Source: a plasmid. Taken from it: a DNA stretch of 64,000 bases. Position numbers and translations under genes: made by a program. The notes under the pieces are model-generated. The model searched no databases and was not told the DNA's origin. It saw only the letters and a list, made by a program, of their open reading frames with translations. Below, one piece after another: positions 14,961 through 30,808 of this stretch; the stretch's first letter is position 1, and each line of letters starts with the position of its first letter. The DNA lies in sequence record OW849071.1. One strand, 5' to 3'.

Positions 14961-15590
14961 GGTCTTGGGGCGGAAGCAGCTGGCACCGACGGCAAACATC
15001 TCCAATTCAATGCGCAGCTGGCGACAAACCATTTCCATCAATTAGGGCTGGCCGCCTTGTGAATTCCAGAAAACGATCTTGCGAATACCTGTGCGCCAGG
15101 CGCTTTTAGCCATTTCAAAACACACTTTCCCCAGAACATCATATGGCAACGAAAGTGTGTCAGGGTAAGCTAGGTGTTCGTCAGATTTACCTACAGGCAA
15201 AGTGGCCAACACCAGCATGGTAAATTGGCAGGCAGTAATTCTGCAGCTCGCTCAATAATGCTGGCATTAATGGCAGCAAACACCCGAACCAGCAGATGAG
15301 GTCCGTGTTGTTCTACGGCGCAAATAGGTAGTACTGCGACGATATTCGCCATATCCAGTTTACTGAATTCCCGCGTGGTGAGATCACACCACTAGGGAGA
15401 AGACGGTTTAAGCATGTTTACCTCCGGTTTTGTCTAACAATAAAAGATACGGTACGTTGCATTTAGGGCATTTTAGACCGGCTCTATGTCCTGCTATGTG
15501 CTAACTTTTCCAGTTTAATGGCCTCTCGTCGGGTTGTGTAGCAACAGTGTCGCCACCGGCGGAAATCCGCCGGTTTGAATGCTTTTTTGT

Positions 15591-17324
15591 TCAGCAGGCG
15601 ACGAGGTGCCCGTCGCCAAAATCGGTAAAGCGCTGCGGTACTCTCTGATAGCCGATGGGTTTGATCGGTTCTGGTCTTATCGGCATTGCGCTGGTGGCTC
15701 GGGGTTGCCGTCTTTGCTGAACGTCAGGTATAGGAACGGCGCTGAGCAAGTGCTGAGTATAAGGATGCTGCGGATGGTGCAACACTCGATCTCGTGGGCC
15801 GATCTCCACGAGCTGGCCGCCAAACATCACCGCTACCCGGTGGCAGATGCGCTCCACCACCGCCATATCATGGGAAATAAACAGATAGCTGAGCCGATAG
15901 CGCTGACGCAAATCTTCCAGCAGCGTCAGCACCTGCGCCTGTACTGAAACATCCAGCGCGGAAACCGATTCATCGGCGATGATCACTTTCGGGTTCAGCG
16001 CCAGCGCGCGGGCAATGCAAATGCGCTGGCGCTGGCCGCCGGAAAACTGGTGCGGATAACGCCGCATCGCTTCCGCTGGCAGGCCGACCTGCTGCAATAG
16101 CTGCGCCACCCGCTCCGTGCGCTGTACTGCGGGCATCTGCTCATGAATCAGCAGCGGCTCCCCAACCAGGTCGAAAATAGTTTTGCGCGGATTGAGCGCC
16201 GCCCAGGGATCCTGAAACACCATCTGCAAATCGCGGCGTACCGCTCTTAACGCCTCGTCCTTCAGGCCGTGCAGCTCCTGTCCGTTAAGCTGCGCGCTGC
16301 CGCTAAATGGCACCATATTCATCAGAGCTTTTGCCGTCGTCGATTTACCGCAGCCGCTTTCACCGACGATGCCCAACGTCTCGCCGGGGAAAAGATCGAA
16401 GCTGACGCCATCGACGGCATGGACTTCGCGACGCACGCGCAGGCCGTCGCCGCGCACCGGAAAGCGCACGCTGAGGTCGCGGACGCTGAGCAACGGTCGC
16501 GTCGCCTCGACCGGCGCCAGCGCGGGCGCCTGGCCCAGCACCGGTACCGCCTGCAACAGCTGGCGGGTATAAGCCGCCTGCGGCGAGGTAAACAGCGTTT
16601 TTGCCGGAGCCTGCTCCATGATTTTGCCGTGACTCATAACCAGCACATCATCGGCCATTTCTGCCACCACTCCCATATCGTGGGTGATCAACAGCAGGCT
16701 GGTGGAAAACGCCTGCTGCAGTTCGCGCATCAACTCGAGGATCTGCGCCTGAATAGTGACGTCGAGGGCCGTGGTCGGCTCATCGGCAATCAGCACCTGT
16801 GGCTGGCACAGCATTGCCATGGCGATCATCACCCGCTGGCGCATACCGCCGGAAAGCTCGTGCGGATACTGTTGCAGGCGCTTCTCCACATGACTGATTT
16901 TGACCGCGTCCAGCATCGTGCTGACCCGGCTGCGCCGTTCACGGCGGCCCAGCACTTCGTGGCGTTGCAGCGTCTCTTCCAGCTGCTGGCCCACCGTCAT
17001 CAGCGGATTGAGCGAGGTCATCGGTTCCTGAAAAATCATGGCAACCGACTTGCCGCGCAGCAACTGCATTTGCCGCTCCGGCAGGCTGAGCAAATCCTGG
17101 TTATCAAAAATAATCGCGCCGCCTGGAATCTGTGCCTCCTCCGGAAGCAAACCCATGATCGCCAGCGAAGTCAGCGATTTACCGCTGCCCGACTCGCCGG
17201 CAATGCACAGAGTTTTTCCCGGCCAGAGCGCAAAGCTGACGTCATCCACCACCCGCTGTGTACCAAACTGGATCGACAGGCGCTCGACCGAGAGCAGCGG
17301 CGCCGGAAATAGGACTGCTGACAT
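15591..17324 (-). CDS. ABC transporter ATP-binding protein with two fused ATPase domains (DppD/DppF- or GsiA-like).
   Basis: Two Walker A motifs (GESGSGKS; GESGCGKST), two signature motifs (LSGGMRQR; FSGGQRQR) and two Walker B motifs. The start is taken as [11 protein letters not shown] at 17324, preceded by an AGGAG ribosome-binding site. Confidence 0.8.
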
Positions 17325-17331
17325 AACGCTC

Positions 17332-18279
17332 CTAATTAAACACGCTGTTGGGAAAATAGAACGACACCACCCAGTTAGGCCGATCGACGATTTCGCTGAT
17401 GCGCAGATCGCCGCACACGGAGCAGAGCATATAGGCCTCTTCCGCCGACATCCCTTGTTCGCGGCACAGCGCATCGATGGTATAGCTTACCGCGTCGCGG
17501 GCGGCGGTCATCAGGTCAGGGCCAATGCCGGTGAAGGCGCTGTAGCCGTGCCGATCCAGATGTTGGGTCACTGGGCCAGGGGTGGCGAAACGCGGCGTTT
17601 TCAGCGGCATATCTTTAACCACTTCCAGCTTCACCACCACGTCCATCGCGCTTTCAATCGCCGTGCCGCAGACTTCACCATCGCCCTGCGCGGCGTGGGT
17701 GTCACCAATAGAAAACAACGCGCCTTCTACTTCCACCGGTAGCCATAATGTGCAGCCAGCGGCCAGATCGCGAATATCCAGATTGCCGCCCACGCGGCGC
17801 GGCGGCACCACCGAATGATGGCCCGCGGCAGCGGGAGCGACGCCGAGGGTACCGGCGAAGGGTTTCAGCGGTACGCGGCCATATCGGCCAAAGGCGCAGG
17901 GGGTTAAGCCCTGGCGGTCATATTGCCACAGCGTCAGCGCCGGATCAGAAAACTGATCGGCCAGCAGGCCGAAGCCCGGGATATTCGCAGTCCAGCCAAA
18001 GCCGCTGGGACGAAAGGATTCCAGCGTCACCTTTAGCGCATCGCCCGGCTGAGCGCCTTCCACATAGACCGGGCCACTGACCGGGTTGAGCTTATCAAAC
18101 GGCAGCGTTGGGATATCCGCTGCGGTAGAACCGGCGTTGAACCAGCCGTTAGCCGCATCCAGGCAGTGAAACTCCAGTTGGCTGCCGGAAGCTACGTGCA
18201 GGACCGGGCTCAGGCTGTTATCCCAGCCGAAATGATGTTGAGCATGATGAATGGTCTTCACCAGACAATTTTGGCACAT
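17332..18279 (-). CDS. Acetamidase/formamidase-family (FmdA_AmdA) amide hydrolase.
   Basis: 315 aa, identified by family-level resemblance to FmdA/AmdA-type amidases. It is embedded between the substrate-binding protein and the ATPase of the ABC operon. Confidence 0.65.
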   Translation of the reverse strand: MCQNCLVKTIHHAQHHFGWDNSLSPVLHVASGSQLEFHCLDAANGWFNAGSTAADIPTLPFDKLNPVSGPVYVEGAQPGDALKVTLESFRPSGFGWTANIPGFGLLADQFSDPALTLWQYDRQGLTPCAFGRYGRVPLKPFAGTLGVAPAAAGHHSVVPPRRVGGNLDIRDLAAGCTLWLPVEVEGALFSIGDTHAAQGDGEVCGTAIESAMDVVVKLEVVKDMPLKTPRFATPGPVTQHLDRHGYSAFTGIGPDLMTAARDAVSYTIDALCREQGMSAEEAYMLCSVCGDLRISEIVDRPNWVVSFYFPNSVFN

Positions 18280-18323
18280 CCTGACTCTCCTTTAAGCAGC
18301 GGCGCCGTCCCGGCGCCATCAAA

Positions 18324-19931
18324 TTATTTCAGTCCGATATAGTCGTAGTTGACTGGTACATGCACTGGATCGACATACAGCGCGTCCTCGCCCCCCATGC
18401 GTGCGGAATGTACGGTGTAGCGCTTCTCGTTGAATACCGGCACCCAGGGCGCGTCATCCATTGCAGTGATGAAGATTTTGCGCCAGGCTTCAATGCGCGC
18501 GTCCTGCTGGTCGGGTTTCACCATGCTGTCCGCCGCGGCCGCCTGCGCGTCCAGCGCTTTGTTGCAGTAGCGCGCCCAGTTCCAGCCGCCCTCTACCGCC
18601 CCGGCGCAGCCGAGGATCGGGCCATAGAAGTTGGAGGGATCCGGGAAATCGGCGATCCACGCCATGCCGCCGGACCAGACCATCGGCGCTTGGCTGGCGG
18701 AGCCGCCCGCCGCAATCACATTCGCCTGCGCCAGGGATTTGATGCTGGCGTGGATGCCCACTTTGGCCAGATCCTGCTGGATAGACTGAGCGATACGCGG
18801 CTGCGGATCGGTATTCATCACGTACAGTTCGGTAGCAAAACCGTTGGGGAAACCCGCTTCGCTGAGCAGTTGCTTCGCTTTTGCCGGGTCGTAGCTGAAA
18901 CCCTGATATGCCTTGTCATAACCGGGCATGGCGGGTGGCAGTGGCTGGTTGGCCGGCGCCGCGCGTCCATTAATGATGCGCACGATGCGATCTTTGTTGA
19001 CCGCCATGTTCACCGCCTGGCGGACTTTGAGATTATCGAAAGGCGGCAGCGTGGTTTTCATCGTCACGTAGCCGGTCTGCAACTGGTCGCCGGTGACCAT
19101 CAGGCCCTTATAGGCCGGGTTGTTTTTAAACGACAGAAACTGTGCGGGCGGTACGCCGTCGCCGGCAATATCCACTTCGCCTTTTTCCAGCCGCAGCAGA
19201 GCGACCGAGGGATCCTGTCCCATTTCGAACTTTATGTGATCCAGCCGCGGCACGCCGGCTTTAAAGTAGTTCGGGTTTTTGCGGAAGATCAGCTCCTGGC
19301 CCAGCTTCCACTCCTGGAGCTCAAACGCGCCGCTGCCGACCGGATGCTTGCCGAAGTCGGCACCCCATTTCTCCACCTCCTCACGGGGAACCACCGAGGC
19401 AAAGTTCAGCGCCAGCACATGCAGGAAGGTGGCGTTGGGCTCTTTCAGAGTGATTTTTACCGTATGATCGTCGACGACCTCGATACCGCTCAGGGTCGTG
19501 CTTTTACCGCTAGCCTCCTCGTCATAGCCCGCGATGGGACTGAAGAACCCGGCGCCCGGACTTTGGGTTTTCGGGTTGACTGTGCGTTCCAGAGAATATT
19601 TCACGTCCGCCGCCGTGACCTCGCGGCCGTTGTGGAATTTCACCCCTTTGCGTAGCACAAAGGTGTAGACCTTGCCGTCCTCGGAAATGGCGTAGCTCTC
19701 CGCCAGGTCGTTCACCAACTCGGTGGTGCCGGGACGATAGTCCATCAGGCCGTCGAACAGGCTTTTGATCATCGACCAGTTTTGCCAGTCATAGCCAATG
19801 GCCGGATCGAGGGTCGCCACGTCGTTCTGGTAGGTCACCACGATATCGCCGCCGGTCTTCTCGTCAGCCTGCGCGCCATAAGAGAAACAGGCCGCGGCCA
19901 CCGCCATTGTCAATAACGCATTTTTCATCAT
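18324..19931 (-). CDS. Periplasmic substrate-binding protein, family 5 (DppA/OppA/NikA-like).
   Basis: 535 aa with a signal peptide MMKNALLTMAVAAACFSYGAQA; size and context match SBP_bac_5 proteins. Confidence 0.75.
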   Translation of the reverse strand: MMKNALLTMAVAAACFSYGAQADEKTGGDIVVTYQNDVATLDPAIGYDWQNWSMIKSLFDGLMDYRPGTTELVNDLAESYAISEDGKVYTFVLRKGVKFHNGREVTAADVKYSLERTVNPKTQSPGAGFFSPIAGYDEEASGKSTTLSGIEVVDDHTVKITLKEPNATFLHVLALNFASVVPREEVEKWGADFGKHPVGSGAFELQEWKLGQELIFRKNPNYFKAGVPRLDHIKFEMGQDPSVALLRLEKGEVDIAGDGVPPAQFLSFKNNPAYKGLMVTGDQLQTGYVTMKTTLPPFDNLKVRQAVNMAVNKDRIVRIINGRAAPANQPLPPAMPGYDKAYQGFSYDPAKAKQLLSEAGFPNGFATELYVMNTDPQPRIAQSIQQDLAKVGIHASIKSLAQANVIAAGGSASQAPMVWSGGMAWIADFPDPSNFYGPILGCAGAVEGGWNWARYCNKALDAQAAAADSMVKPDQQDARIEAWRKIFITAMDDAPWVPVFNEKRYTVHSARMGGEDALYVDPVHVPVNYDYIGLK

Positions 19932-19940
19932 CTTCCCCTG

Positions 19941-20861
19941 CTACTTTTTGACATCAATGCGCGGATCGACCCACGGCAGCACCAGATCCGCAATAAGGTT
20001 GCCGCCAACAATGGCAACCGCTGACACGGTGGTTACCCCGACAATCACCGGGATATCCACCTGTTGAATCGCCTGCCAGGCCAGCTGACCGATACCCGGC
20101 CAGCCAAAGACCGATTCGACTACCACCAGTCCGCCCATAAAAATGCCGATATCAATGCCTATCATCGGAATTAGCGGCAGCACGGCATTCGGCAGCACGT
20201 GACGCAGCAGTACGCGGGTTCGGCCCAGCCCTTTGGCCCGCGCGGTACGGATAAAATCCTGATGCAGCACCTCAATCATCGACGAGCGCAACATGCGTGA
20301 ATACCAGCCGCTGCCGAGCAGGCCGAGGGTTAGCGCCGGTAGCGCCAGATGGCTGAAGCCGCCATAGCCTCCCATCGGGAACCAGTTGAGTACCACGGCG
20401 AAAAGATAGAGAAAAAGCATCGCGGCGATGAACTGCGGCGCCGAAACACCGATAAAGGAGAGCGCCATCAGAAGCCGGTCCGCCAGCCCGCCGCGTTTTA
20501 ACGCCGCCAGGGTGCCGAGTGCGATCCCCAGTACCAACTCGCAGAGAATACCCGCCGCCATCAGCTGCAGTGACGGCCCGATACGGGCGGAAACCAGTTC
20601 ACTCACTTCGCTGCGCTGAATAAACGAGCGTCCCAGATCGCCGTGCAGCAGCCCCTGCAGATAACGCCAATATTGCTGATAAAACGGAAGATCCAACCCC
20701 AACTGATGGCGGATGTTTTCGACTACTTCCGGCGTGGCACTGCGCCCGGCGATTTGGCGCGCTGGATCGGCGGGCAACATAAACAGCAGCAAATAGCAGA
20801 TCAACGTAACGCCAAGCAGGATCAGCCCGGCATGCAACAGACGTTTTCCCAGAAATAGCAT
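19941..20861 (-). CDS. ABC transporter permease (DppB/OppB-like).
   Basis: 306 aa, polytopic, with the EAA-like loop region typical of BPD_transp_1 permeases. Confidence 0.75.
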   Translation of the reverse strand: MLFLGKRLLHAGLILLGVTLICYLLLFMLPADPARQIAGRSATPEVVENIRHQLGLDLPFYQQYWRYLQGLLHGDLGRSFIQRSEVSELVSARIGPSLQLMAAGILCELVLGIALGTLAALKRGGLADRLLMALSFIGVSAPQFIAAMLFLYLFAVVLNWFPMGGYGGFSHLALPALTLGLLGSGWYSRMLRSSMIEVLHQDFIRTARAKGLGRTRVLLRHVLPNAVLPLIPMIGIDIGIFMGGLVVVESVFGWPGIGQLAWQAIQQVDIPVIVGVTTVSAVAIVGGNLIADLVLPWVDPRIDVKK

Positions 20862-21709
20862 TAGTTTCGTCCTTTTAAGCCGGGATCGAGGGCGTCGCGC
20901 AGGGCGTCACCAGCGATATTGAAAGAGAGCGACAGCAGCACAATCGCCGCGCCGGGAAAGAACACCAGCCAGGGAGCCGAAGTAAAATAGCTCTGGCTTT
21001 CAAAGATGATGTTGCCCCAACTCGGCGTTGGCGGCTGTACCCCCACCCCGAGGAACGATAGAGTAGCTTCCAGCAGGACTGTGGTGGAGATGCCTAGTGT
21101 GGCCCAGACCAGCACCGTTGGCGCCAGATGTGGAATTAAATGCACGCCGAGAATACGCAACGTTCCGGCCCCCAGGGTGCGTTCCACGGCGATAAAGTCG
21201 CGGGCGCTAAGCGCGCTAGTTTCGGCGTAGATAACCCTGGCGATCTGCACCCAGTTCACCATGGCGATCACCAGGGACACGATCCAGACACTTGGCTGGA
21301 AAATCGCCGCCAGGGCAATCGCCAGCAGCAGTGCGGGAAACGCCATCATCAGATCGGTAAAGCGCATCAGCAGCCCTCCGATACGCCCCTGCAGATAACC
21401 TGCGCTAAGCCCTACCAGGACGCCGATCAGTACTGCAGTGCCGTTGGCGACAACACCGATGAGTAACGAAGTACGAGCTCCGTAAATTAAACGCGAGAAG
21501 AGATCGCGTCCCAGCAGATCGGTTCCCAGCCAGTAAGTGCTGTTGGGAGAAAGCGGTGCGCCTTCCAGGCTCAGTCCCTCGACAAACTGTTCATCGGGAT
21601 CGAAGGGGGTGAGCCAGGGGGCAAACAGCGCGCTCATCACCACCAGGAGAATAAACAGCAGCGAGAGCAGCAGGGCTGGCCGGCGCAGAAAATATCCGAC
21701 TCTATTCAT
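20861..21709 (-). CDS. ABC transporter permease (DppC/OppC-like).
   Basis: The start is taken as MNRVGYFLRRPALLLSLLFIL at 21709. This ATG overlaps the amiR-like stop in an ATGA arrangement. Confidence 0.7.
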   Translation of the reverse strand: MNRVGYFLRRPALLLSLLFILLVVMSALFAPWLTPFDPDEQFVEGLSLEGAPLSPNSTYWLGTDLLGRDLFSRLIYGARTSLLIGVVANGTAVLIGVLVGLSAGYLQGRIGGLLMRFTDLMMAFPALLLAIALAAIFQPSVWIVSLVIAMVNWVQIARVIYAETSALSARDFIAVERTLGAGTLRILGVHLIPHLAPTVLVWATLGISTTVLLEATLSFLGVGVQPPTPSWGNIIFESQSYFTSAPWLVFFPGAAIVLLSLSFNIAGDALRDALDPGLKGRN

Positions 21710-22299
21710 TGTGCTCCCCGCTTGCCGGACGACATTCGTAGCAGCCACTTCTGCGCCACCTGTGCCACCGACTGGTTCGTACACATTGATTCCGAGCGCA
21801 GGCGAACCCATGCCTGTTGTTCATCAATACTTTCCGCTTGCATCTGGGCCGCCAGAGCTTGGGTAATCTGCGGCATTGCTGCCAGACGCTGGCGCAGTAG
21901 CATCTGTTGCTGTTGAATGTCATGCAACTGCTGACGCAGCCCCACTGCCATCATCAGGGTGGTATAGATGGCTCGCTGTGTAATAGGCTTGGTAAGGAGC
22001 GCTGTTGCCCCTAACTCCAGCGCGCGCTGTACCTGGTAAAGTCCCTCATGTGAGGTCAGCGCGATCACCGGTATTCCGGCCAGATTGATCTGGCTCAGGG
22101 TTAGCGGGCTGGCGAATGCCTCCAGTTCCACCAGTACTGCACAGGGGGTGAGAGGAGGTAAAGCCTCATCTCCGGTCAGGTGATGCCAGCGGATACCCAT
22201 CCGCGTCAGGTTTTTTTCCAGCGCTTCGCGACTCCTTGCTTCACAGTCTACCAGCAGGAGCGGCTGAGCATCTAAATCCGGGGACAGCAGCGTTTTCAT
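21706..22299 (-). CDS. AmiR-like response regulator with an ANTAR RNA-binding antiterminator domain.
   Basis: 197 aa with a pseudo-receiver N-terminal domain. The C-terminal coiled-coil/ANTAR segment (...QQLHDIQQQQMLLRQRLAAMPQITQALAAQMQAES...) resembles AmiR of P. aeruginosa. Its start overlaps the amiC-like stop by 4 nt. Confidence 0.65.
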   Translation of the reverse strand: MKTLLSPDLDAQPLLLVDCEARSREALEKNLTRMGIRWHHLTGDEALPPLTPCAVLVELEAFASPLTLSQINLAGIPVIALTSHEGLYQVQRALELGATALLTKPITQRAIYTTLMMAVGLRQQLHDIQQQQMLLRQRLAAMPQITQALAAQMQAESIDEQQAWVRLRSESMCTNQSVAQVAQKWLLRMSSGKRGAQ

Positions 22300-23423
22300 T
22301 TAACAATCCTCAGAGCAGGTCTGGCTGCAACCGTTCGGCTTTCACGTAGCTCGGTCGCGGAGAGATAGGGATCGGGCATAACCGGCAGCGGTTCGCGATG
22401 CAGTATCTGAAAGCAAGTTTGTTGCAACTCAGCGATGTAGCAGGGCAAACAGGCGTGGTTGTTTCGAGCCATTACTGAGCGAGCGCCCGGAGAATCAACG
22501 TCGTGCTGACGATGCAGTGCCGCCAGCACCGCACCCGGCTCGCTGTTTCCGGCCTCGCGCAGGCTATTGGCAAACAACCTTACTGCCCGCCAGCCGCCGA
22601 TATAGTAGTGGGAGATGCGCTGTGCGCCATGTTGCAGGTGCTGCCGCGCGCAAAAATCGAGATCGACGCTCTCAAAAAACGGTCCGCAGGAAAGCAAACG
22701 TACCGCCCTTAGTGGCGCGACTTCGGCGACTTCGGCTTCGGTAAAATTACAGCTGAGCACCGCTAACGTCCGCCGATCGCGAAGACAGGCCTCGTCCAGT
22801 GCGCGCAGAAACGCATAAGAGGTTTCGCCTACCAGGTTATTGAGTACAAAATCTACCTCTGTGCTGAGAATCGCCTCAATCAACTCGGTCACGTTGCTGT
22901 TTCTCAGGTGCAGATATTTTTCGCCCACCACCGTACCGCCGGAACCTTCCACTACCTCACGGGCGATACGATTGCTTTCCCAGCCCCAGACGTAGTTAGA
23001 GCCGATCAGCCAGGAGCGATTTCCGAACATATCCAGCGCCAGCCGCAGGAGTGGCAGCAGAGTCTGGTTCGGACAACCGCCCAGATATACGACCTGCTCG
23101 CAGCTCTCGAACCCCTCGTAAGGACAGCCATACCACAGCAGCAGGTTATGCTGCTCCAGGTCCGGGATAATCTCCTTCCGACTGGCAGAGGTAATGGTTC
23201 CGAAGATATGGCGGATGCCGTGAGCGATAAAGGTGCTCACCGCTTCACTGTAGGCTGCGAGTTCACCCGCAGGGTTGATATGTCGGGCCCGCAGCTGAAA
23301 AGGATAAGCAGGATCGGCATTGATTTCCTCTAAGGCATGGCGCGCACCAAGCAGTGTGCTGTTCGCCAGGTGGCTGTAGGTACCTTCTGTGGAAAGCAAA
23401 ATTCCAATATCAATAGTTTGCAC
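22296..23423 (-). CDS. AmiC-like ligand sensor (periplasmic-binding-protein-fold amide sensor; negative regulator of AmiR).
   Basis: 375 aa, MQTIDIGILLSTEGTYSHLANSTLLGARHALEEINAD...; LivJ-like type I PBP fold without a signal peptide, like AmiC. It has a GTG start and sits immediately upstream of the amiR-like gene. Confidence 0.65.
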   Translation of the reverse strand: MQTIDIGILLSTEGTYSHLANSTLLGARHALEEINADPAYPFQLRARHINPAGELAAYSEAVSTFIAHGIRHIFGTITSASRKEIIPDLEQHNLLLWYGCPYEGFESCEQVVYLGGCPNQTLLPLLRLALDMFGNRSWLIGSNYVWGWESNRIAREVVEGSGGTVVGEKYLHLRNSNVTELIEAILSTEVDFVLNNLVGETSYAFLRALDEACLRDRRTLAVLSCNFTEAEVAEVAPLRAVRLLSCGPFFESVDLDFCARQHLQHGAQRISHYYIGGWRAVRLFANSLREAGNSEPGAVLAALHRQHDVDSPGARSVMARNNHACLPCYIAELQQTCFQILHREPLPVMPDPYLSATELRESRTVAARPALRIVK

Positions 23424-23441
23424 GTATGTTTGCTCTCTGCA

Positions 23442-23484
23442 TTAATAAAAAAGCCTGATTGTCCTTATTAGGACAATCAGGCTT
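23442..23484 (-). terminator. Rho-independent terminator-like hairpin in the leader directly upstream of the amiC-like gene.
   Basis: On the minus strand: aagcctgattgtcc-taataa-ggacaatcaggctt. This is a perfect 14-bp stem with a 6-nt loop, followed by ttttttatt. It ends ~20 nt before the GTG start at 23423. Confidence 0.6.
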
Positions 23485-24011
23485 CATTACCTGTCGATAT
23501 TTAATGGATTCAAGGCTTAAGGGTTGCCCCTGCTTGCATATACCCGACATGAAAAATTCATGCCATTTTTAAAGCACAGTTAAATCAATGGATTATTTAT
23601 TTTTGGAGACACTTTTGCACCAATGGGATGCGGCTTGCTCAGTTATGGTGCAATTTTCTGATGCAGTCTGGTCTCTTCAACATGAGGTGGAGTAATGCAC
23701 ACCTGTTTTAGTTCCACGCACTTTTTGAGAGTTCCGGTTTTTCAGCCATCAGCAGGTGATCCTCCGGCGTCAGGTTATTCAGGGATTCATGGGGACGCTC
23801 TGGATGGAAGATCCTCGTGACGAAGCCGAATTTGCCCCCGGCCACGTGCTTTTTTTCGAGCGTAATGTTGTCCATGCATTACCAACCCTTCTTGAAGAAC
23901 CCGTAATATTTCTGTCATTGGCCAGCCCTCGTCGTGCTCCTGAAGATATTACCTTTGTTGACCCGAAAGATGGCACTGCCAGAACCTTTATGGCCAGAAA
24001 TAATGAGTCAG

Positions 24012-24493
24012 CATAAAGGGCCAGAACCAAAGGTAAGGTGGAGCGGATGGTGAAATACCTCAAGGAGAACTTCTTCGTCCGGTACCGCCGGTTCGACAGC
24101 TTCGCCCAGGTTAATCAGCTACTGGAGCAGTGGATGGCTGACGTTGCCGACAGGCGGGAACTTCGCCAGTTCAGGCAGACACCGGAACAGCGCTTCACGC
24201 AGGAACAGGAGCATCTGCAGCCGTTGCCGGATACGGACTTCGATACCAGCTACTTCGATATCCGTCATGTCTCCTGGGATGGCTATATCGAGGTTGGCGG
24301 AAACCGTTACAGCGTGCCGGAAAGCCTGTGTGGCCAGCCGGTATCAATACGGATTTCGCTGGATGATGAACTGCGGATCTACAGTAATGAGCAGCAGATG
24401 GCATCGCACCGTCTCTGTTCGGCTGCATCCGGCTGGCAGACCGTGCCGGAGCATCACGCCCCGCTCTGGCAGCAGGTCAGTCAGGTGGAACCC
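24012..24493 (+). pseudogene. IS21-family IstA transposase, 3' fragment.
   Basis: ...ARTKGKVERMVKYLKENFFVRYRRFDSFAQVNQLLEQWMADVADRRELRQF...HHAPLWQQVSQVE matches the C-terminal ~155 aa of IS21 IstA as I recall it. It is 5'-truncated, and its C-terminal end is replaced where an IS903 end abuts. Confidence 0.7.
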
Positions 24494-24521
24494 GAAATCT
24501 GATTTATTCAACAAAGCCGCA
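24493..24521 (+). repeat. Solo IS903 terminal-repeat remnant (~29 bp).
   Basis: cccgaaatctgatttattcaacaaagcc is identical to the right end of the IS903 copy at 54709-54737. No IS903 body accompanies it. Confidence 0.7.
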
Positions 24522-24917
24522 CCAAATCATCACTCGAAGATATTCAGGCATGGTACATCCGCGGCAAGCCCCTAATTTGTACTGAGGGGCAAAGTGAAAA
24601 AAGTTACTTTTTGTTGAAACGACAGTTAGCAATAACCCCCGCTTGCGGGGGCCATACCCACCAGGAGCAAACGCAGAAAGCCCGAGATACTTCTGCTGTA
24701 CCGGGGGCTGGCGACATTTCAGGCAACACTCATAGTTGACATCCTCCCCGCCCTAAAGGGCGGGGAGGATGTCAATAATAGCAGACCACATCATGATGTC
24801 ATTCTGACCGACAGATGCCAGAAGCAGAGGATCCATCCCATTTTATACCTACCTTATAACACTTAGAAAAACAACATGTTAAAAATGTTTATTGGAAACA
24901 ATTTTAAGTCCAATTGT

Positions 24918-24945
24918 AATGATAACCATTCTCATATTAATATGG
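24918..24945 (+). promoter_or_regulatory. Fur box / fecI promoter region.
   Basis: gtaatgataaccattctcatattaat matches the E. coli fecI upstream Fur operator almost base-for-base as I recall it. Confidence 0.6.
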
Positions 24946-24977
24946 CTACGTGATAATTAACTTTTGATGCACTCCGC

Positions 24978-25499
24978 ATGTCTGACCGTGCCACTACCAC
25001 AGCTTCCTTAACGTTCGAGTCGCTTTATGGCACCCATCACGGCTGGTTGAAAAGTTGGCTGACGCGCAAACTCCAGTCTGCCTTTGATGCAGATGACATT
25101 GCCCAGGACACTTTTTTGCGGGTAATGAGCAGCGAAACGCTCTCGACGATCCGCGATCCTCGCTCTTTCCTGTGCACTATCGCCAAACGCGTGATGGTGG
25201 ACCTGTTTCGCCGAAACGCGCTGGAAAAAGCGTATCTGGAGATGCTGGCGCTTATGCCGGAGGGGGGAGCGCCTTCACCTGAGGAACGCGAAAGCCAGCT
25301 CGAGACCCTACAACTCGTCGACAGCATGCTGGACGGGCTAAACGGAAAAACACGTGAAGCGTTTCTGCTTTCGCAACTGGATGGCCTGACATACAGCGAG
25401 ATTGCGCACAAACTCGGTGTTTCCGTCAGCTCCGTGAAAAAATACGTGGCGAAAGCCGTCGAGCACTGCCTGCTGTTTCGTCTGGAGCATGGGTTATGA
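24978..25499 (+). CDS. fecI: ECF sigma factor FecI.
   Basis: 173 aa with sigma-70 regions 2 and 4 ([28 protein letters not shown]...). It is followed by fecR and fecA in the canonical order. Confidence 0.9.
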
Positions 25500-26449
25500 A
25501 TCCTTCGTTAACCGATTCCCGCCGTCAGGCGCTGCGTTCAGCTTCCCACTGGTATGCCGTGCTAAGCGGCGAGCGCGTCAGCCCACAACAGGAAGCGCGC
25601 TGGCAACAGTGGTATGAACAGGATCAGGATAACCAGTGGGCCTGGCAGCAGGTTGAAAACCTGCGCAACCAGCTTGGCGGTGTGCCTGGCGACGTTGCCA
25701 GCCGGGCGCTGCACGATACCCGCCTCACCCGCCGTCACGTGATGAAAGGATTACTGCTGTTGCTCGGCGCTGGCGGAGGCTGGCAACTCTGGCAGTCGGA
25801 AACCGGCGAAGGTCTGCGGGCAGATTACCGCACCCCCAAAGGCGCAGTCAGCCGTCAGCAACTGGAAGATGGCTCCCTGCTCACGCTGAATACCCAAAGC
25901 GCGGCGGATGTGCGTTTTGATGCGCATCAGCGCACCGTCCGGCTCTGGTACGGTGAAATCGCCATTACTACCGCGAAAGATGCGCAGCAACGCTCCTTCC
26001 GCGTCCTGACCCGTCAGGGCCAACTCACCGCTTTAGGGACAGAATTTACCGTCCGCCAGCAGGATAATTTCACGCAGCTTGACGTGCAGCAGCACGCCGT
26101 GGAAGTGCTTCTCGCCAGTGCCCCCGCGCAAAAACGCATCGTGAACGCTGGTGAAAGCCTGCAGTTCAGCGCCTCTGAGTTTGGCGCAGTGAAACCGCTG
26201 GATGACGAGAGTACAAGCTGGACGAAGGGCATCCTGAGCTTCAGCGATAAACCGCTGGGTGAGGTGATAGCCACGCTAAGCCGTTACCGCAACGGCGTGC
26301 TGCGCTGCGATCCCGCCGTTGCCGGGCTGCGCCTGAGCGGGACGTTCCCGCTGAAAAATACCGATGCGATCCTGAACGTTATCGCTCAAACGCTTCCCGT
26401 TAAAATTCAGTCTATTACGCGGTACTGGATAAACATTTCACCGCTGTAA
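25496..26449 (+). CDS. fecR: Anti-sigma/transmembrane signal transducer FecR.
   Basis: 317 aa ([39 protein letters not shown]...). It overlaps the fecI stop by 4 nt. Confidence 0.9.
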
Positions 26450-26500
26450 GAAAAATAATTCTCATTTCGATTGTCCTTTTTACCTTCTCGTTCGACTCAT
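26440..26500 (+). promoter_or_regulatory. FecI-dependent fecA promoter.
   Basis: aaaaataattctcatttcgattgtcctttttaccttctcgttcgactcatagctgaacacaaca is near-identical to the E. coli fecA promoter/leader. Confidence 0.65.
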
Positions 26501-26502
26501 AG

Positions 26503-28866
<2,364 letters not shown>

Positions 28867-28910
28867 TGTGTTAACGCCCGGCTTGCCGGGCTTTTAGCTG
28901 GAATGTGACT

Positions 28911-29813
28911 ATGTTGGCATTTATCCGTTTTCTTTTTGCAGGCCTGCTGCTGGTGATCGGCCACGCCTTTGCCGCCACGGTTCAGGACGAACACGGCACG
29001 TTTACACTCGATAAAACGCCACAACGGATTGTGGTGCTGGAACTCTCGTTCGCCGATGCGCTGGCCGCCGTGGACGTCAGCCCGATCGGTATTGCCGACG
29101 ATAACGATGCAAAACGCATCCTGCCCGAAGTGCGTGCGCACCTGAAACCGTGGCAGTCCGTCGGAACGCGCGCGCAGCCGAGCCTGGAAGCCATTGCTGC
29201 CCTGAAACCAGACCTGATCATTGCCGACAGCAGTCGCCATGCGGGGATTTACACCGCCTTGCAGCAAATCGCGCCGGTACTGCTGCTTAAGTCCCGCAAC
29301 GAAACCTACGCTGAAAATTTGCACTCAGCGGCTATCATCGGCGAAGTGGTAGGTAAAAAACGAGAGATGCAGGCGCGTCTGGAACAACATAAAGAGAAGA
29401 TGGCGCAGTGGGCCAGCCAGCTTCCCACAGGGACACGCGTGGCCTTTGGCACATCACGCGAACAGCTATTCAACCTGCATACCCAGGAGACCTGGACCGG
29501 CAGCGTGCTGGCTTCTCTGGGGCTGAACGTTCCCGCTGCGATGGCGGGCGCGTCCATGCCGTCCATCGGCCTGGAGCAACTGCTGGCGGTCAATCCTGCC
29601 TGGCTGCTGGTTGCCCACTATCGCGAAGAGAGCATTGTTAAACGCTGGCAACAAGATCCGCTCTGGCAGATATTAACCGCCGCGCAGAAGCAGCAGGTTG
29701 CTTCAGTCGACAGTAACGCCTGGGCGCGGATGCGCGGTATTTTTGCCGCAGAGCGTATTGCCGCTGACACGGTAAAAATCTTCCACCATCAGCCGCTTAC
29801 CGATATGAAATGA
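28911..29813 (+). CDS. fecB: Periplasmic ferric-dicitrate binding protein FecB.
   Basis: MLAFIRFLFAGLLLVIGHAFAATVQDEHGTFTL... matches E. coli FecB closely. Confidence 0.9.
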   Translation: MLAFIRFLFAGLLLVIGHAFAATVQDEHGTFTLDKTPQRIVVLELSFADALAAVDVSPIGIADDNDAKRILPEVRAHLKPWQSVGTRAQPSLEAIAALKPDLIIADSSRHAGIYTALQQIAPVLLLKSRNETYAENLHSAAIIGEVVGKKREMQARLEQHKEKMAQWASQLPTGTRVAFGTSREQLFNLHTQETWTGSVLASLGLNVPAAMAGASMPSIGLEQLLAVNPAWLLVAHYREESIVKRWQQDPLWQILTAAQKQQVASVDSNAWARMRGIFAAERIAADTVKIFHHQPLTDMK

Positions 29814-30808
29814 CCGCGCTAAAACACCCGGTGCTGCTGTGGGGGCTTCCCGTTGCAGTACTTATTATTATTTTCTGGCTGAGTCTGTTTTGCTACTCGG
29901 CCATTCCTGTTTCCGGAGCAGACGCAATCCGCGCCCTGCTGCCTGGACACACGCCAACGCTACCAGAAGCGCTGGTGCAAAACCTTCGTTTGCCGCGAAG
30001 CCTGGTCGCCGTTCTGATCGGCGCAAGCCTGGCGCTCGCGGGCACGCTGCTGCAAACCCTGACCCACAACCCAATGGCCTCTCCTTCACTGCTCGGCATT
30101 AACAGCGGCGCGGCGCTGGCTATGGCGCTTACCAGCGCGCTGAGTCCGACGCCGGTTGCAGGCTATTCCCTGTCGTTCATCGCGGCATGCGGGGGCGGCG
30201 TGAGCTGGCTGCTGGTCATGACCGCAGGAGGCGGGTTTCGTCATACCCAGGACAGAAACAAACTGATCCTCGCGGGTATCGCGCTGTCGGCCTTTTGTAT
30301 GGCCCTGACCCGCATCACCCTACTGCTGGCCGAAGATCATGCTTACGGCATCTTTTACTGGCTGGCAGGCGGAGTGTCCCACGCCCACTGGCAGGATGTC
30401 TGGCAGCTCTTGCCGGTGGTGGTCACTGCAGTCCCTGTCGTGTTGCTGCTGGCGAATCAACTGAACCTGCTCAACGTCAGCGACAGTACCGCCCATACGC
30501 TGGGAGTGAACCTGCCGAGACTACGTTTGATCATCAATATGTTAGTGCTGCTTCTGGTTGGCGCGTGCGTCAGTGTGGCAGGTCCGGTGGCGTTTATCGG
30601 CCTGCTGGTGCCACATCTGGCGCGCTTCTGGGCAGGCTTCGATCAGCGCAACGTACTGCCGGTGAGCATGCTGCTGGGGGCCACGCTGATGCTGATGGCA
30701 GATGTACTCGCACGCGCGCTGGCCTTCCCCGGCGATCTGCCCGCAGGCGCAGTGCTGGCGCTGATTGGCAGTCCTTGCTTTGTCTGGCTGGTGAGGAGGC
30801 GAGGATGA
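29810..30808 (+). CDS. fecC: Ferric-dicitrate ABC permease FecC.
   Basis: 332 aa FecCD-family permease with an ATGA overlap to fecD. Confidence 0.9.
   Translation: MTALKHPVLLWGLPVAVLIIIFWLSLFCYSAIPVSGADAIRALLPGHTPTLPEALVQNLRLPRSLVAVLIGASLALAGTLLQTLTHNPMASPSLLGINSGAALAMALTSALSPTPVAGYSLSFIAACGGGVSWLLVMTAGGGFRHTQDRNKLILAGIALSAFCMALTRITLLLAEDHAYGIFYWLAGGVSHAHWQDVWQLLPVVVTAVPVVLLLANQLNLLNVSDSTAHTLGVNLPRLRLIINMLVLLLVGACVSVAGPVAFIGLLVPHLARFWAGFDQRNVLPVSMLLGATLMLMADVLARALAFPGDLPAGAVLALIGSPCFVWLVRRRG

Follow-up and report, generated by a model that had tools for sequence, protein, structure and literature searches.

The leader of the amiC-like operon

The window (the whole stretch of DNA that was analysed, 64,000 nt of the plasmid record OW849071.1) carries on its minus strand a seven-gene operon that encodes an AmiC-like ligand sensor, an AmiR-like ANTAR regulator, an importer of the Opp type and an amidase of the FmdA/AmdA family, and the present analysis concerns a hairpin in the 5' leader of its first gene. 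An original prediction, made from the letters of the sequence, had read this hairpin as an intrinsic (Rho-independent) terminator and as a candidate target of ANTAR-type antitermination. The genes of the operon overlap or are separated by at most 44 nt and leave no intergenic space for another leader, so that the leader upstream of the amiC-like gene is the only one. Coordinates of the features are collected in Table 1.

On the minus strand, the arms aagcctgattgtcc (23484-23471) and ggacaatcaggctt (23464-23451) enclose taataa (23470-23465), which bears out the 14 perfect pairs and the loop of the original prediction. Folding with ViennaRNA adds a closing U-A and a basal G.U pair, giving a stem of 16 bp (23485-23470 paired with 23465-23450) and the loop AAUA. 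The fold of 23495-23441 has an energy of -29.6 kcal/mol against a mean of -7.7 for dinucleotide shuffles (z = -9.19, with 0 of 200 shuffles as stable), and a consensus terminator scan of 21000-26000 gave the hairpin as its top site (16 pairs, 7 of them G-C). On the 3' side of the terminator six T follow GGC (23452-23447), then ATT; the tail as first written takes an arm ending in ...ggctt, which leaves TTTTATT only and not TTTTTTATT. The gap from the last T of the tract (23444) to the GTG of the amiC-like gene (23423) is 20 nt, in agreement with the distance of about 20 nt first given. A stable stem-loop with an immediate U-tract on the transcribed strand, the pattern of an intrinsic terminator, is thus present, and since no T-run follows the hairpin on the plus strand, the terminator belongs to the minus strand. 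A local repeat scan lists the hairpin (arms 23446-23465 and 23470-23489); the inverted-repeat scan of the whole window (gap limit of 12 nt) does not, an omission that is put down to the way in which the tool lists its repeats and is not counted against the hairpin.

The 5' arm of the terminator is overlapped by a second, shorter hairpin, P2, whose 3' half shares the segment GCCUG (23482-23478) with the base of that arm. Folded alone, P2 has an energy of -6.2 kcal/mol (z = -4.45). When it is enforced on the leader, at a cost of 12 kcal/mol, the terminator loses its 8 basal pairs and keeps an 8-bp distal stem that is detached from the U-tract. The P2 and terminator folds are mutually exclusive, and the 12 kcal/mol is the gap that a bound protein would need to cover. 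By definition, the P2 of an ANTAR target has a hexaloop with A at position 1 and G at position 4, closed by 3 bp or more, and overlaps the terminator (PMC3369931). All of these are found in the P2 of this leader, with its 3' half lying over the terminator base, and its loop (AAUGAA, then GC) is closely like the loops of seed members such as AAAGAA, then GC (PMC3369931).

Upstream of P2 lies a structured element with an outer helix of 5 bp (CAAGC / G(C)CUUG) in which one pyrimidine is bulged, an inner hairpin that varies and reads GGG-GCAA-CCC in the window copy, and a 3' junction U-A-A-G at 23519-23516. Rfam searches of 15000-30000, then of 23400-23700 at E up to 10, returned no family over the leader and chance-level matches only. 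The minimum free energy fold of 23400-23720 alone gave no useful antiterminator picture and was uninformative in this respect, so a comparative analysis was needed.

The consensus for sigma54 promoters is TGGCAC-N5-TTGCA. Segment 23565-23550 has a canonical -24 part (TGGCAY) and carries TTTCA at -12, where the consensus has TTGCA; the difference is a T for the G at -13. Within 23424-23700 on the minus strand no sigma70-like site was predicted, and the transcript would start near 23539, upstream of the hairpin. The dyad at 23615-23653, which reads TGCACCATAACTGAGCA AGC CGCATCCCATTGGTGCA on the minus strand, is putatively assigned to NtrC from its likeness to the consensus TGCACCA-N3-TGGTGCA.

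The AmiC-like protein begins with MQTIDIGILLSTEG..., shows no signal peptide by inspection and corresponds to WP_004118840.1 in RefSeq. The locus has the arrangement of an AmiC-AmiR pair, a cytoplasmic sensor of the Peripla_BP fold adjoining an ANTAR gene with a 4-nt overlap; the ANTAR regulator had been placed two genes downstream, a position that is corrected here to the adjacent gene. In Pfam the AmiR-like protein matches ANTAR with 32.8 bits (cut-off 27.3) and AmiR_N with 22.1 bits, under the cut-off of 27. Its best solved relative is AmiR of Pseudomonas aeruginosa (1QO0, E = 5.8e-7), followed by EutV (6WSH). Its segment ...VLVELE... stands opposite ...VILDVQ... of the receiver 5TQJ and places Glu at the likely phospho-acceptor Asp site, which, if this Asp is indeed the acceptor, is consistent with an AmiR-like pseudo-receiver. 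In the alignment with EutV, ...IDEQQAW... stands opposite ...ISEEEAY..., with Trp at the position of EutV Tyr164, the residue that stacks on the flipped G4 (PMC8934654).

Table 1. Positions of the leader elements and operon genes in the window
Feature	Position	Strand	Remarks
P2 hairpin CAGGU-AAUGAA-GCCUG	23478-23493	minus	5 bp; loop A1 = 23488, G4 = 23485
Intrinsic terminator stem-loop	23450-23485	minus	16 bp including closing U-A and basal G.U; loop 23469-23466
U-tract TTTTTTATT	23444-23452	minus	first three U able to pair with GAA at the stem base
Upstream structured element (non-canonical 'P1')	23511-23536	minus	outer helix, variable inner hairpin and U-A-A-G junction
Sigma54-like -24/-12 element TGGCATGAATTTTTCA	23550-23565	minus	TGGCAT-N5-TTTCA
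NtrC-like dyad TTGCACCA ... TGGTGCAA	23615-23653		two imperfect 17-bp sites; inverted repeat I4
AmiC-like cytoplasmic ligand sensor, 375 aa, Peripla_BP_5	22296-23423	minus	PF13433, E = 9e-77; GTG at 23423
AmiR-like ANTAR regulator, 197 aa	21706-22299	minus	pseudo-receiver, coiled coil, ANTAR domain
Structural genes (putatively regulated), tightly packed	15591-21709	minus	Pfam and RefSeq annotation
OppC-like permease	20861-21709	minus	structural gene
OppB-like permease	19941-20861	minus	structural gene
SBP_bac_5 binding protein	18324-19931	minus	structural gene
FmdA_AmdA amidase (PF03069)	17332-18279	minus	structural gene
Fused ATP-binding cassette (ABC) ATPase	15591-17324	minus	structural gene

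Comparative analysis of the leader

A scan of genomes with the AmiC-like protein gave 79 loci from gamma-, beta- and alpha-proteobacteria. A leader of modular build recurs in the 230 nt upstream of these loci, and 52 leaders were aligned (alignment A1). A covariance model (R1), comprising the upstream helix and the terminator, was then searched against the window and all loci. In the 64-kb window R1 has one full-length match only (23446-23553, minus strand, 85.9 bits), and in each of the 53 gamma- and beta-proteobacterial loci (to which the counts below refer unless stated otherwise) it has one match directly upstream of the amiC-like gene. The Psychromonas locus (L058), which lay outside the training set, was matched with 45.6 bits (E about 4e-6).

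In the alignment fitted to the model (A3), which is hence biased towards structure, the 13 modelled pairs of the terminator are paired in 93% of cells, 10 of them have changes on both sides, and none of 500 shuffles equals this; sliding the 3' partners lowers the pairing to at most 47%. Identical swaps are seen in the raw sequences, e.g. UUGUCC/GGACAA versus CCACCAG/CUGGU(U/C)G, and the covariation and the raw swaps together rule out both a hairpin that arose by chance and a stranded terminator. All 53 aligned leaders have five or more T in a row 3' of the stem. Judged from these patterns, the hairpin is a genuine and widely conserved transcription stop signal of the leader, at which termination would be expected.

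The five pairs of P2 are paired in 94% of cells, with an invariant GG/CC core. Its loop conforms to AAYGAA, A1 and G4 each being present in 52 of the 53 leaders, A5 in all and A6 in 51. Loop residues 1-3 fall outside the terminator stem, and their conservation is therefore unexplained by the terminator.

The outer helix of the upstream element is likewise paired in 94% of cells and has both-side changes at three of its five pairs: C-G pairs are replaced elsewhere by U-A, A-U or G-C, as in the swaps AUGAG/CUCAU (Vibrio) and UUGAG/CUCAA (Grimontia) and in Salinicola, where C22-G50 has become U-A. The three pairs of the inner helix all covary. The residues U47, A49, C52 and U53 are invariant and A48 is kept in 51 leaders, and the U-A-A-G junction was graded invariant. 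An alternative antiterminator helix (a helper helix), between the second AAGCC box (the 3' strand of P1) and the 3' arm of the terminator, is pairable in 95% of cells and sterically possible. It shows no both-side changes (500 of 500 shuffles do as well), and the G-to-A change of Salinicola is compensated within the P1 helix and not within this helper helix, which is thus without covariation backing and is considered as neither supported nor excluded.

In Pseudomonas, Stutzerimonas and Halomonadaceae (L011-L052) a further hairpin, rich in GC (GCGC(C)-loop-(G)GCGC, with a loop of 3-7 nt), stands between the 5' element and P2, 1-2 nt 5' of the latter. The leaders of Enterobacterales, the window included, are without it and have an AU-rich, unstructured linker before P2.

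Of the 53 loci, 46 have the promoter-like motif TGGCA[CT]-N5-TTTCA, which precedes the UAAG junction by 45-55 nt. Its TTTCA variant spans leaders of Enterobacterales, Pseudomonas and Halomonadaceae. Such a consistent deviation at -12 suggests a functional cause, which might be, for example, a tighter dependence on the activator. Half-sites similar to TGCACC/GGTGCA also occur upstream in loci L004, L005, L006, L043, L022 and L040.

Among the alpha-proteobacterial loci, about 20 of 23 have a terminator just ahead of the amiC-like gene and a GGC-N6-GCC hairpin over its 5' arm; in these leaders (L057-L080) the terminator and GGC-N6-GCC unit lies about 20-110 nt upstream of the amiC-like start. They are without the CAAGC...UAAG element, Mesorhizobium being among them.

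The gene order amiC, amiR, permease, permease, SBP_bac_5 is kept in 77 of the 79 loci (including the Mesorhizobium loci L069, L076 and L080), the amiR-like gene of the alpha loci being recognised as an open reading frame (ORF) and not by tblastn. In all gamma/beta loci the leader and the ANTAR gene are inherited together. Across the loci of the family the permeases and the SBP_bac_5 protein show 65-88% amino acid identity even where the AmiC-like protein shows 35-63% and the AmiR-like protein 25-57%, which suggests that the sensing and RNA-binding module may evolve faster than the structural genes. At the position of EutV Tyr164 gamma/beta relatives have W, Y or F and several Rhodobacterales have L. 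The correlation of an aromatic residue with loop G4 is not clean, since Mesorhizobium keeps F yet is without G4, and the alpha members may have a shifted recognition code.

For occurrences of the motif in other contexts, metagenomes were scanned with GGTAAYGAAGCCTGA. The scan gave 120 stretches, 80 of which became loci; R1 accepted 4 of the 80, all with 85.9 bits like the window copy, the remainder being chance 15-mer matches, and the scan was uninformative. The region itself is carried at about 100% identity by 627 PLSDB records, mostly from Klebsiella, with a few Escherichia coli plasmids.

Candidate mechanism and alternative explanations

The hairpin is very probably a regulated attenuator of the seven-gene operon that would be overridden by the AmiR-like protein. 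The proposal that it is the cis element of AmiR-type control is strengthened by the match of R1 in 53 of 53 gamma/beta loci, by the covariation of the terminator and by the ANTAR-type hexaloop that overlaps the 5' arm. In mechanistic terms, this is the type of control expected for an operon of the AmiC/AmiR type.

Transcription would start about 85-95 nt upstream of the U-tract, probably from a sigma54-type, NtrC-activated promoter at 23565-23550. By default the nascent leader would fold the 16-bp terminator, and the polymerase would be predicted to halt at the U-tract, 20 nt before amiC. Following the AmiC-AmiR paradigm of P. aeruginosa, an amide inducer bound to the AmiC-like protein would free a dimer of the AmiR-like protein; judged from the MeAmi homologue that has been characterised, an L-amino-acid amide is the probable inducer. 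The free dimer would bind the AAUGAA hexaloop of P2, and P2, once stabilised, would sequester GCCUG and leave only the 8-bp distal stem, so that the polymerase would read on into amiC, amiR and the genes for uptake and amidase. With the regulators encoded downstream of their own attenuator, the circuit would be autoregulated. The promoter and leader together suggest a two-tier control like that of nasF, in which nitrogen status would act at initiation and a specific inducer at antitermination.

Several observations weigh against regulation of this hairpin by the AmiR-like protein. Covariation in P2 is weak: both-side changes are seen in three cells only, and the observed count of pairs with such changes is equalled by 54 of 500 shuffles. 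This is as expected under a double constraint, and the support for P2 comes from conservation and geometry, not from compensation. At -12 the promoter-like element carries TC where the consensus has GC. In alpha-proteobacteria the hexaloops are mostly AAUCGC, AAUCGG, AAUUGC or AAUCAA, with A1 kept and G4 usually lost, so that recognition does not follow one rule throughout the operon family. Finally, a canonical P1 is absent: every A..G.. hexamer in about 23540-23494 was inspected by eye, and none was found to be a hairpin loop closed by 3 or more pairs. Of the dual hexaloop expected to be foldable upstream of the terminator, one half therefore stands, P2 being canonical, and the P1 hexaloop does not. 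The leader as read here has the P2 hairpin, the terminator overlap and the cognate protein of an ANTAR system, and lacks the canonical P1. The missing P1 is not a refutation of the ANTAR reading, because an ANTAR dimer touches a single hexaloop at any one time and the minimal target has been redefined as a single hexaloop (Walshe et al. 2022, PMC8934654). Most likely the upstream element replaces the canonical P1, either as the site at which the ANTAR dimer docks first or as a 5' structure that assists it; this is the weakest step of the proposed mechanism.

Taken alone, the hairpin resembles a generic intrinsic terminator, and remnants of IS3-family and IS21-type insertion sequences (IS) lie 300-1000 nt upstream of it. 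It could thus be a terminator left stranded when its gene disappeared through IS rearrangement, as the original prediction had allowed, or a plain, unregulated insulator against read-through. The same terminator is found, at the same distance from the amiC-like start, in 53 gamma/beta and about 20 alpha loci whose upstream genes are unrelated and which are free of IS debris; the leader is likewise present in chromosomal loci that have none of those remnants, and the hairpin sits 3' of the conserved promoter-like element. The conservation of the AAYGAA loop and of the upstream structured element would also be left unexplained, and an origin of this kind is regarded as highly improbable. Leader-peptide attenuation, in which a short ORF would couple ribosome position to terminator formation, was considered for the reason that the window leader holds ATGCAAGCAGGGGCAACCCTTAAGCCTTGA, a minus-strand ORF of 9 codons (AUG CAA GCA GGG GCA ACC CUU AAG CCU UGA; AUG at 23539, UGA at 23512-23510) that overlaps the 5' element and is also present in L004. 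Its start codon is missing in L005, L006 and L043 (ACAAGC) and in most of the 53 leaders, and it stops well ahead of the terminator, without regulatory codons. This candidate was rejected as not conserved: coupling to translation is extremely improbable, and the ORF is probably fortuitous.

An attenuator that responds to an effector other than the AmiR-like protein, whether the 5' element senses a small molecule or binds another protein, or NusA or Rho act alone, has more in its favour. The 5' element is conserved and covaries, yet lies outside the ANTAR rules and the Rfam families; the canonical P1 is missing; and in the operon family no canonical dual hexaloop was found (10.1101/2024.02.22.581678). 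On the other hand, P2 has the exact ANTAR hexaloop signature over the terminator, like the eut, nasF and amiE leaders (PMC3369931), a single hexaloop is enough for ANTAR binding (PMC8934654), and the ANTAR gene is inherited together with the leader in every gamma/beta locus. An element of about 26 nt with a variable inner hairpin is, moreover, a poor fit for a ligand pocket, and such an effector is considered unlikely. It may be speculated, with some reserve, that 23536-23511 is a new type of ANTAR docking site, formed by a helix junction and not by a terminal hexaloop, or an independent sensing or processing element that gives a second input. If docking at a helix junction were true, it would explain why searches for dual hexaloops, the MeAmi study included, overlooked so large a family of operons, and the space in which ANTAR regulons are to be sought would become larger.

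The four parts of the leader (promoter-like element, 5' helix, P2 hexaloop and terminator) are a concrete target for mutation, and G4 (23485) and A1 (23488) of the P2 loop and the UAAG junction (23519-23516) are the obvious first positions to mutate. An ANTAR system able to go without a textbook first hexaloop bears on the search for ANTAR regulons.

Related systems and genomic surroundings

Known ANTAR targets (Ramesh 2012, PMC3369931; Walshe et al. 2022, PMC8934654) share with this leader the A1/G4 hexaloop AAnGAA followed by GC, a 3' half that is also the terminator base, a cognate ANTAR protein in the same locus and the proposed stabilisation by protein of a weak hairpin against a far stronger terminator. 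They have a P1 hexaloop; in its place the window leader has the bipartite element described above, with the pyrimidine bulge in its 5-bp outer helix, an inner hairpin that varies and the invariant U-A-A-G. In the supplementary tables of Ramesh no entry lies beside an oligopeptide- or dipeptide-type transporter.

The amidase of P. aeruginosa, AmiE, is an aliphatic amidase of a family other than FmdA_AmdA. The window operon differs from the order amiE-amiB-amiC-amiR-amiS with an AmiE-type aliphatic amidase, its own enzyme being of the FmdA_AmdA family (PF03069). Ligand-regulated antitermination by AmiC-AmiR has been described for the P. aeruginosa operon amiEBCRS (O'Hara et al. 1999, cited in PMC3369931). 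Both systems have a cytoplasmic sensor with a periplasmic binding protein (PBP) fold, an ANTAR antiterminator with a pseudo-receiver, a leader terminator before the first gene and regulators 3' of their own attenuator. The regulators are last in P. aeruginosa and first here, where an Opp-type ABC importer and a sigma54/NtrC-looking promoter are added, and they are distant from their P. aeruginosa counterparts (ANTAR 32.8 bits; AmiR_N under the Pfam cut-off).

The nasF leader of Klebsiella oxytoca combines an NtrC/sigma54 promoter with antitermination by the ANTAR protein NasR. The likeness lies in an apparent two-tier logic, nitrogen limitation acting at a sigma54 promoter and a substrate-specific ANTAR protein in the leader. 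The sensor of the nasF system is a fused NIT domain, whereas a separate AmiC-like protein is present here, and the sigma54/NtrC assignment of the window leader, with its non-consensus -12, is drawn from sequence likeness. Antitermination by NasR is introduced in PMC3369931.

Among the closest systems are the ABC transporter/amidase operons for L-amino-acid amides of the MeAmi type, of which 610 have been reported (10.1101/2024.02.22.581678). They have the same gene content and order (cytoplasmic PBP, ANTAR, two permeases, SBP_bac_5, FmdA_AmdA, ATPase). The transport protein of this family was recently shown to bind L-amino-acid amides, and the RNA control element was reported as not found: canonical dual hexaloop motifs could not be identified, and the complex of the AmiC and AmiR homologues is an AlphaFold model only (10.1101/2024.02.22.581678). 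Alpha members of the family, Mesorhizobium included, have a related GGC-N6-GCC hairpin over the terminator, mostly without G4, and these differences of the alpha leaders probably explain the negative dual-hexaloop result of the Mesorhizobium study. An 'amiC amiR ABC amiE' operon of 8 kb has been described on Klebsiella plasmids and is >99% identical across many Enterobacteriaceae plasmids (PMC13209695, 2026); judged by its composition, it is probably the window operon. The RNA element is undescribed both in the MeAmi preprint and in PMC13209695, and the leader analysed here provides a candidate for the missing cis element of the gamma/beta branch, of which this is the first explicit description found. 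The operon is carried on hundreds of plasmids of Klebsiella and other Enterobacterales, and its family comprises >600 operons for amide uptake and amidase.

A remnant of an IS3-family integrase (23708-23809, partial coding sequence; BLAST match as far as 23692) has the same orientation as the operon and ends about 40-50 nt upstream of the NtrC-like dyad. The IS21 debris that had been noted upstream of the leader was found as an IS21-type remnant at 24038-24502. When the window is compared with the Raoultella locus (L004), similarity starts at about the NtrC-like dyad. The mobilised segment thus seems to have retained its regulatory region in full and not much beyond it. Just 3' of the ABC ATPase gene, two short fragments annotated in RefSeq as 'creatininase family protein' (17749-18059 of locus L001, about 15042-15352 of the window) may be what is left of a further gene, related to amides or creatinine, that the plasmid copy of the cluster has lost.

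The operon region adjoins fecIRABCDE. The stretch from the IS21-type remnant to fecI contains, at 24736-24775, an inverted repeat (TTGACATCCTCCCCGCCCT AG AGGGCGGGGAGGATGTCAA) whose two 19-nt arms match perfectly and are spaced by 2 nt. This repeat gives several sub-threshold Rfam matches (HgcC, SRP fragments), and a promoter-like minus-strand site (24802-24775) abuts it.

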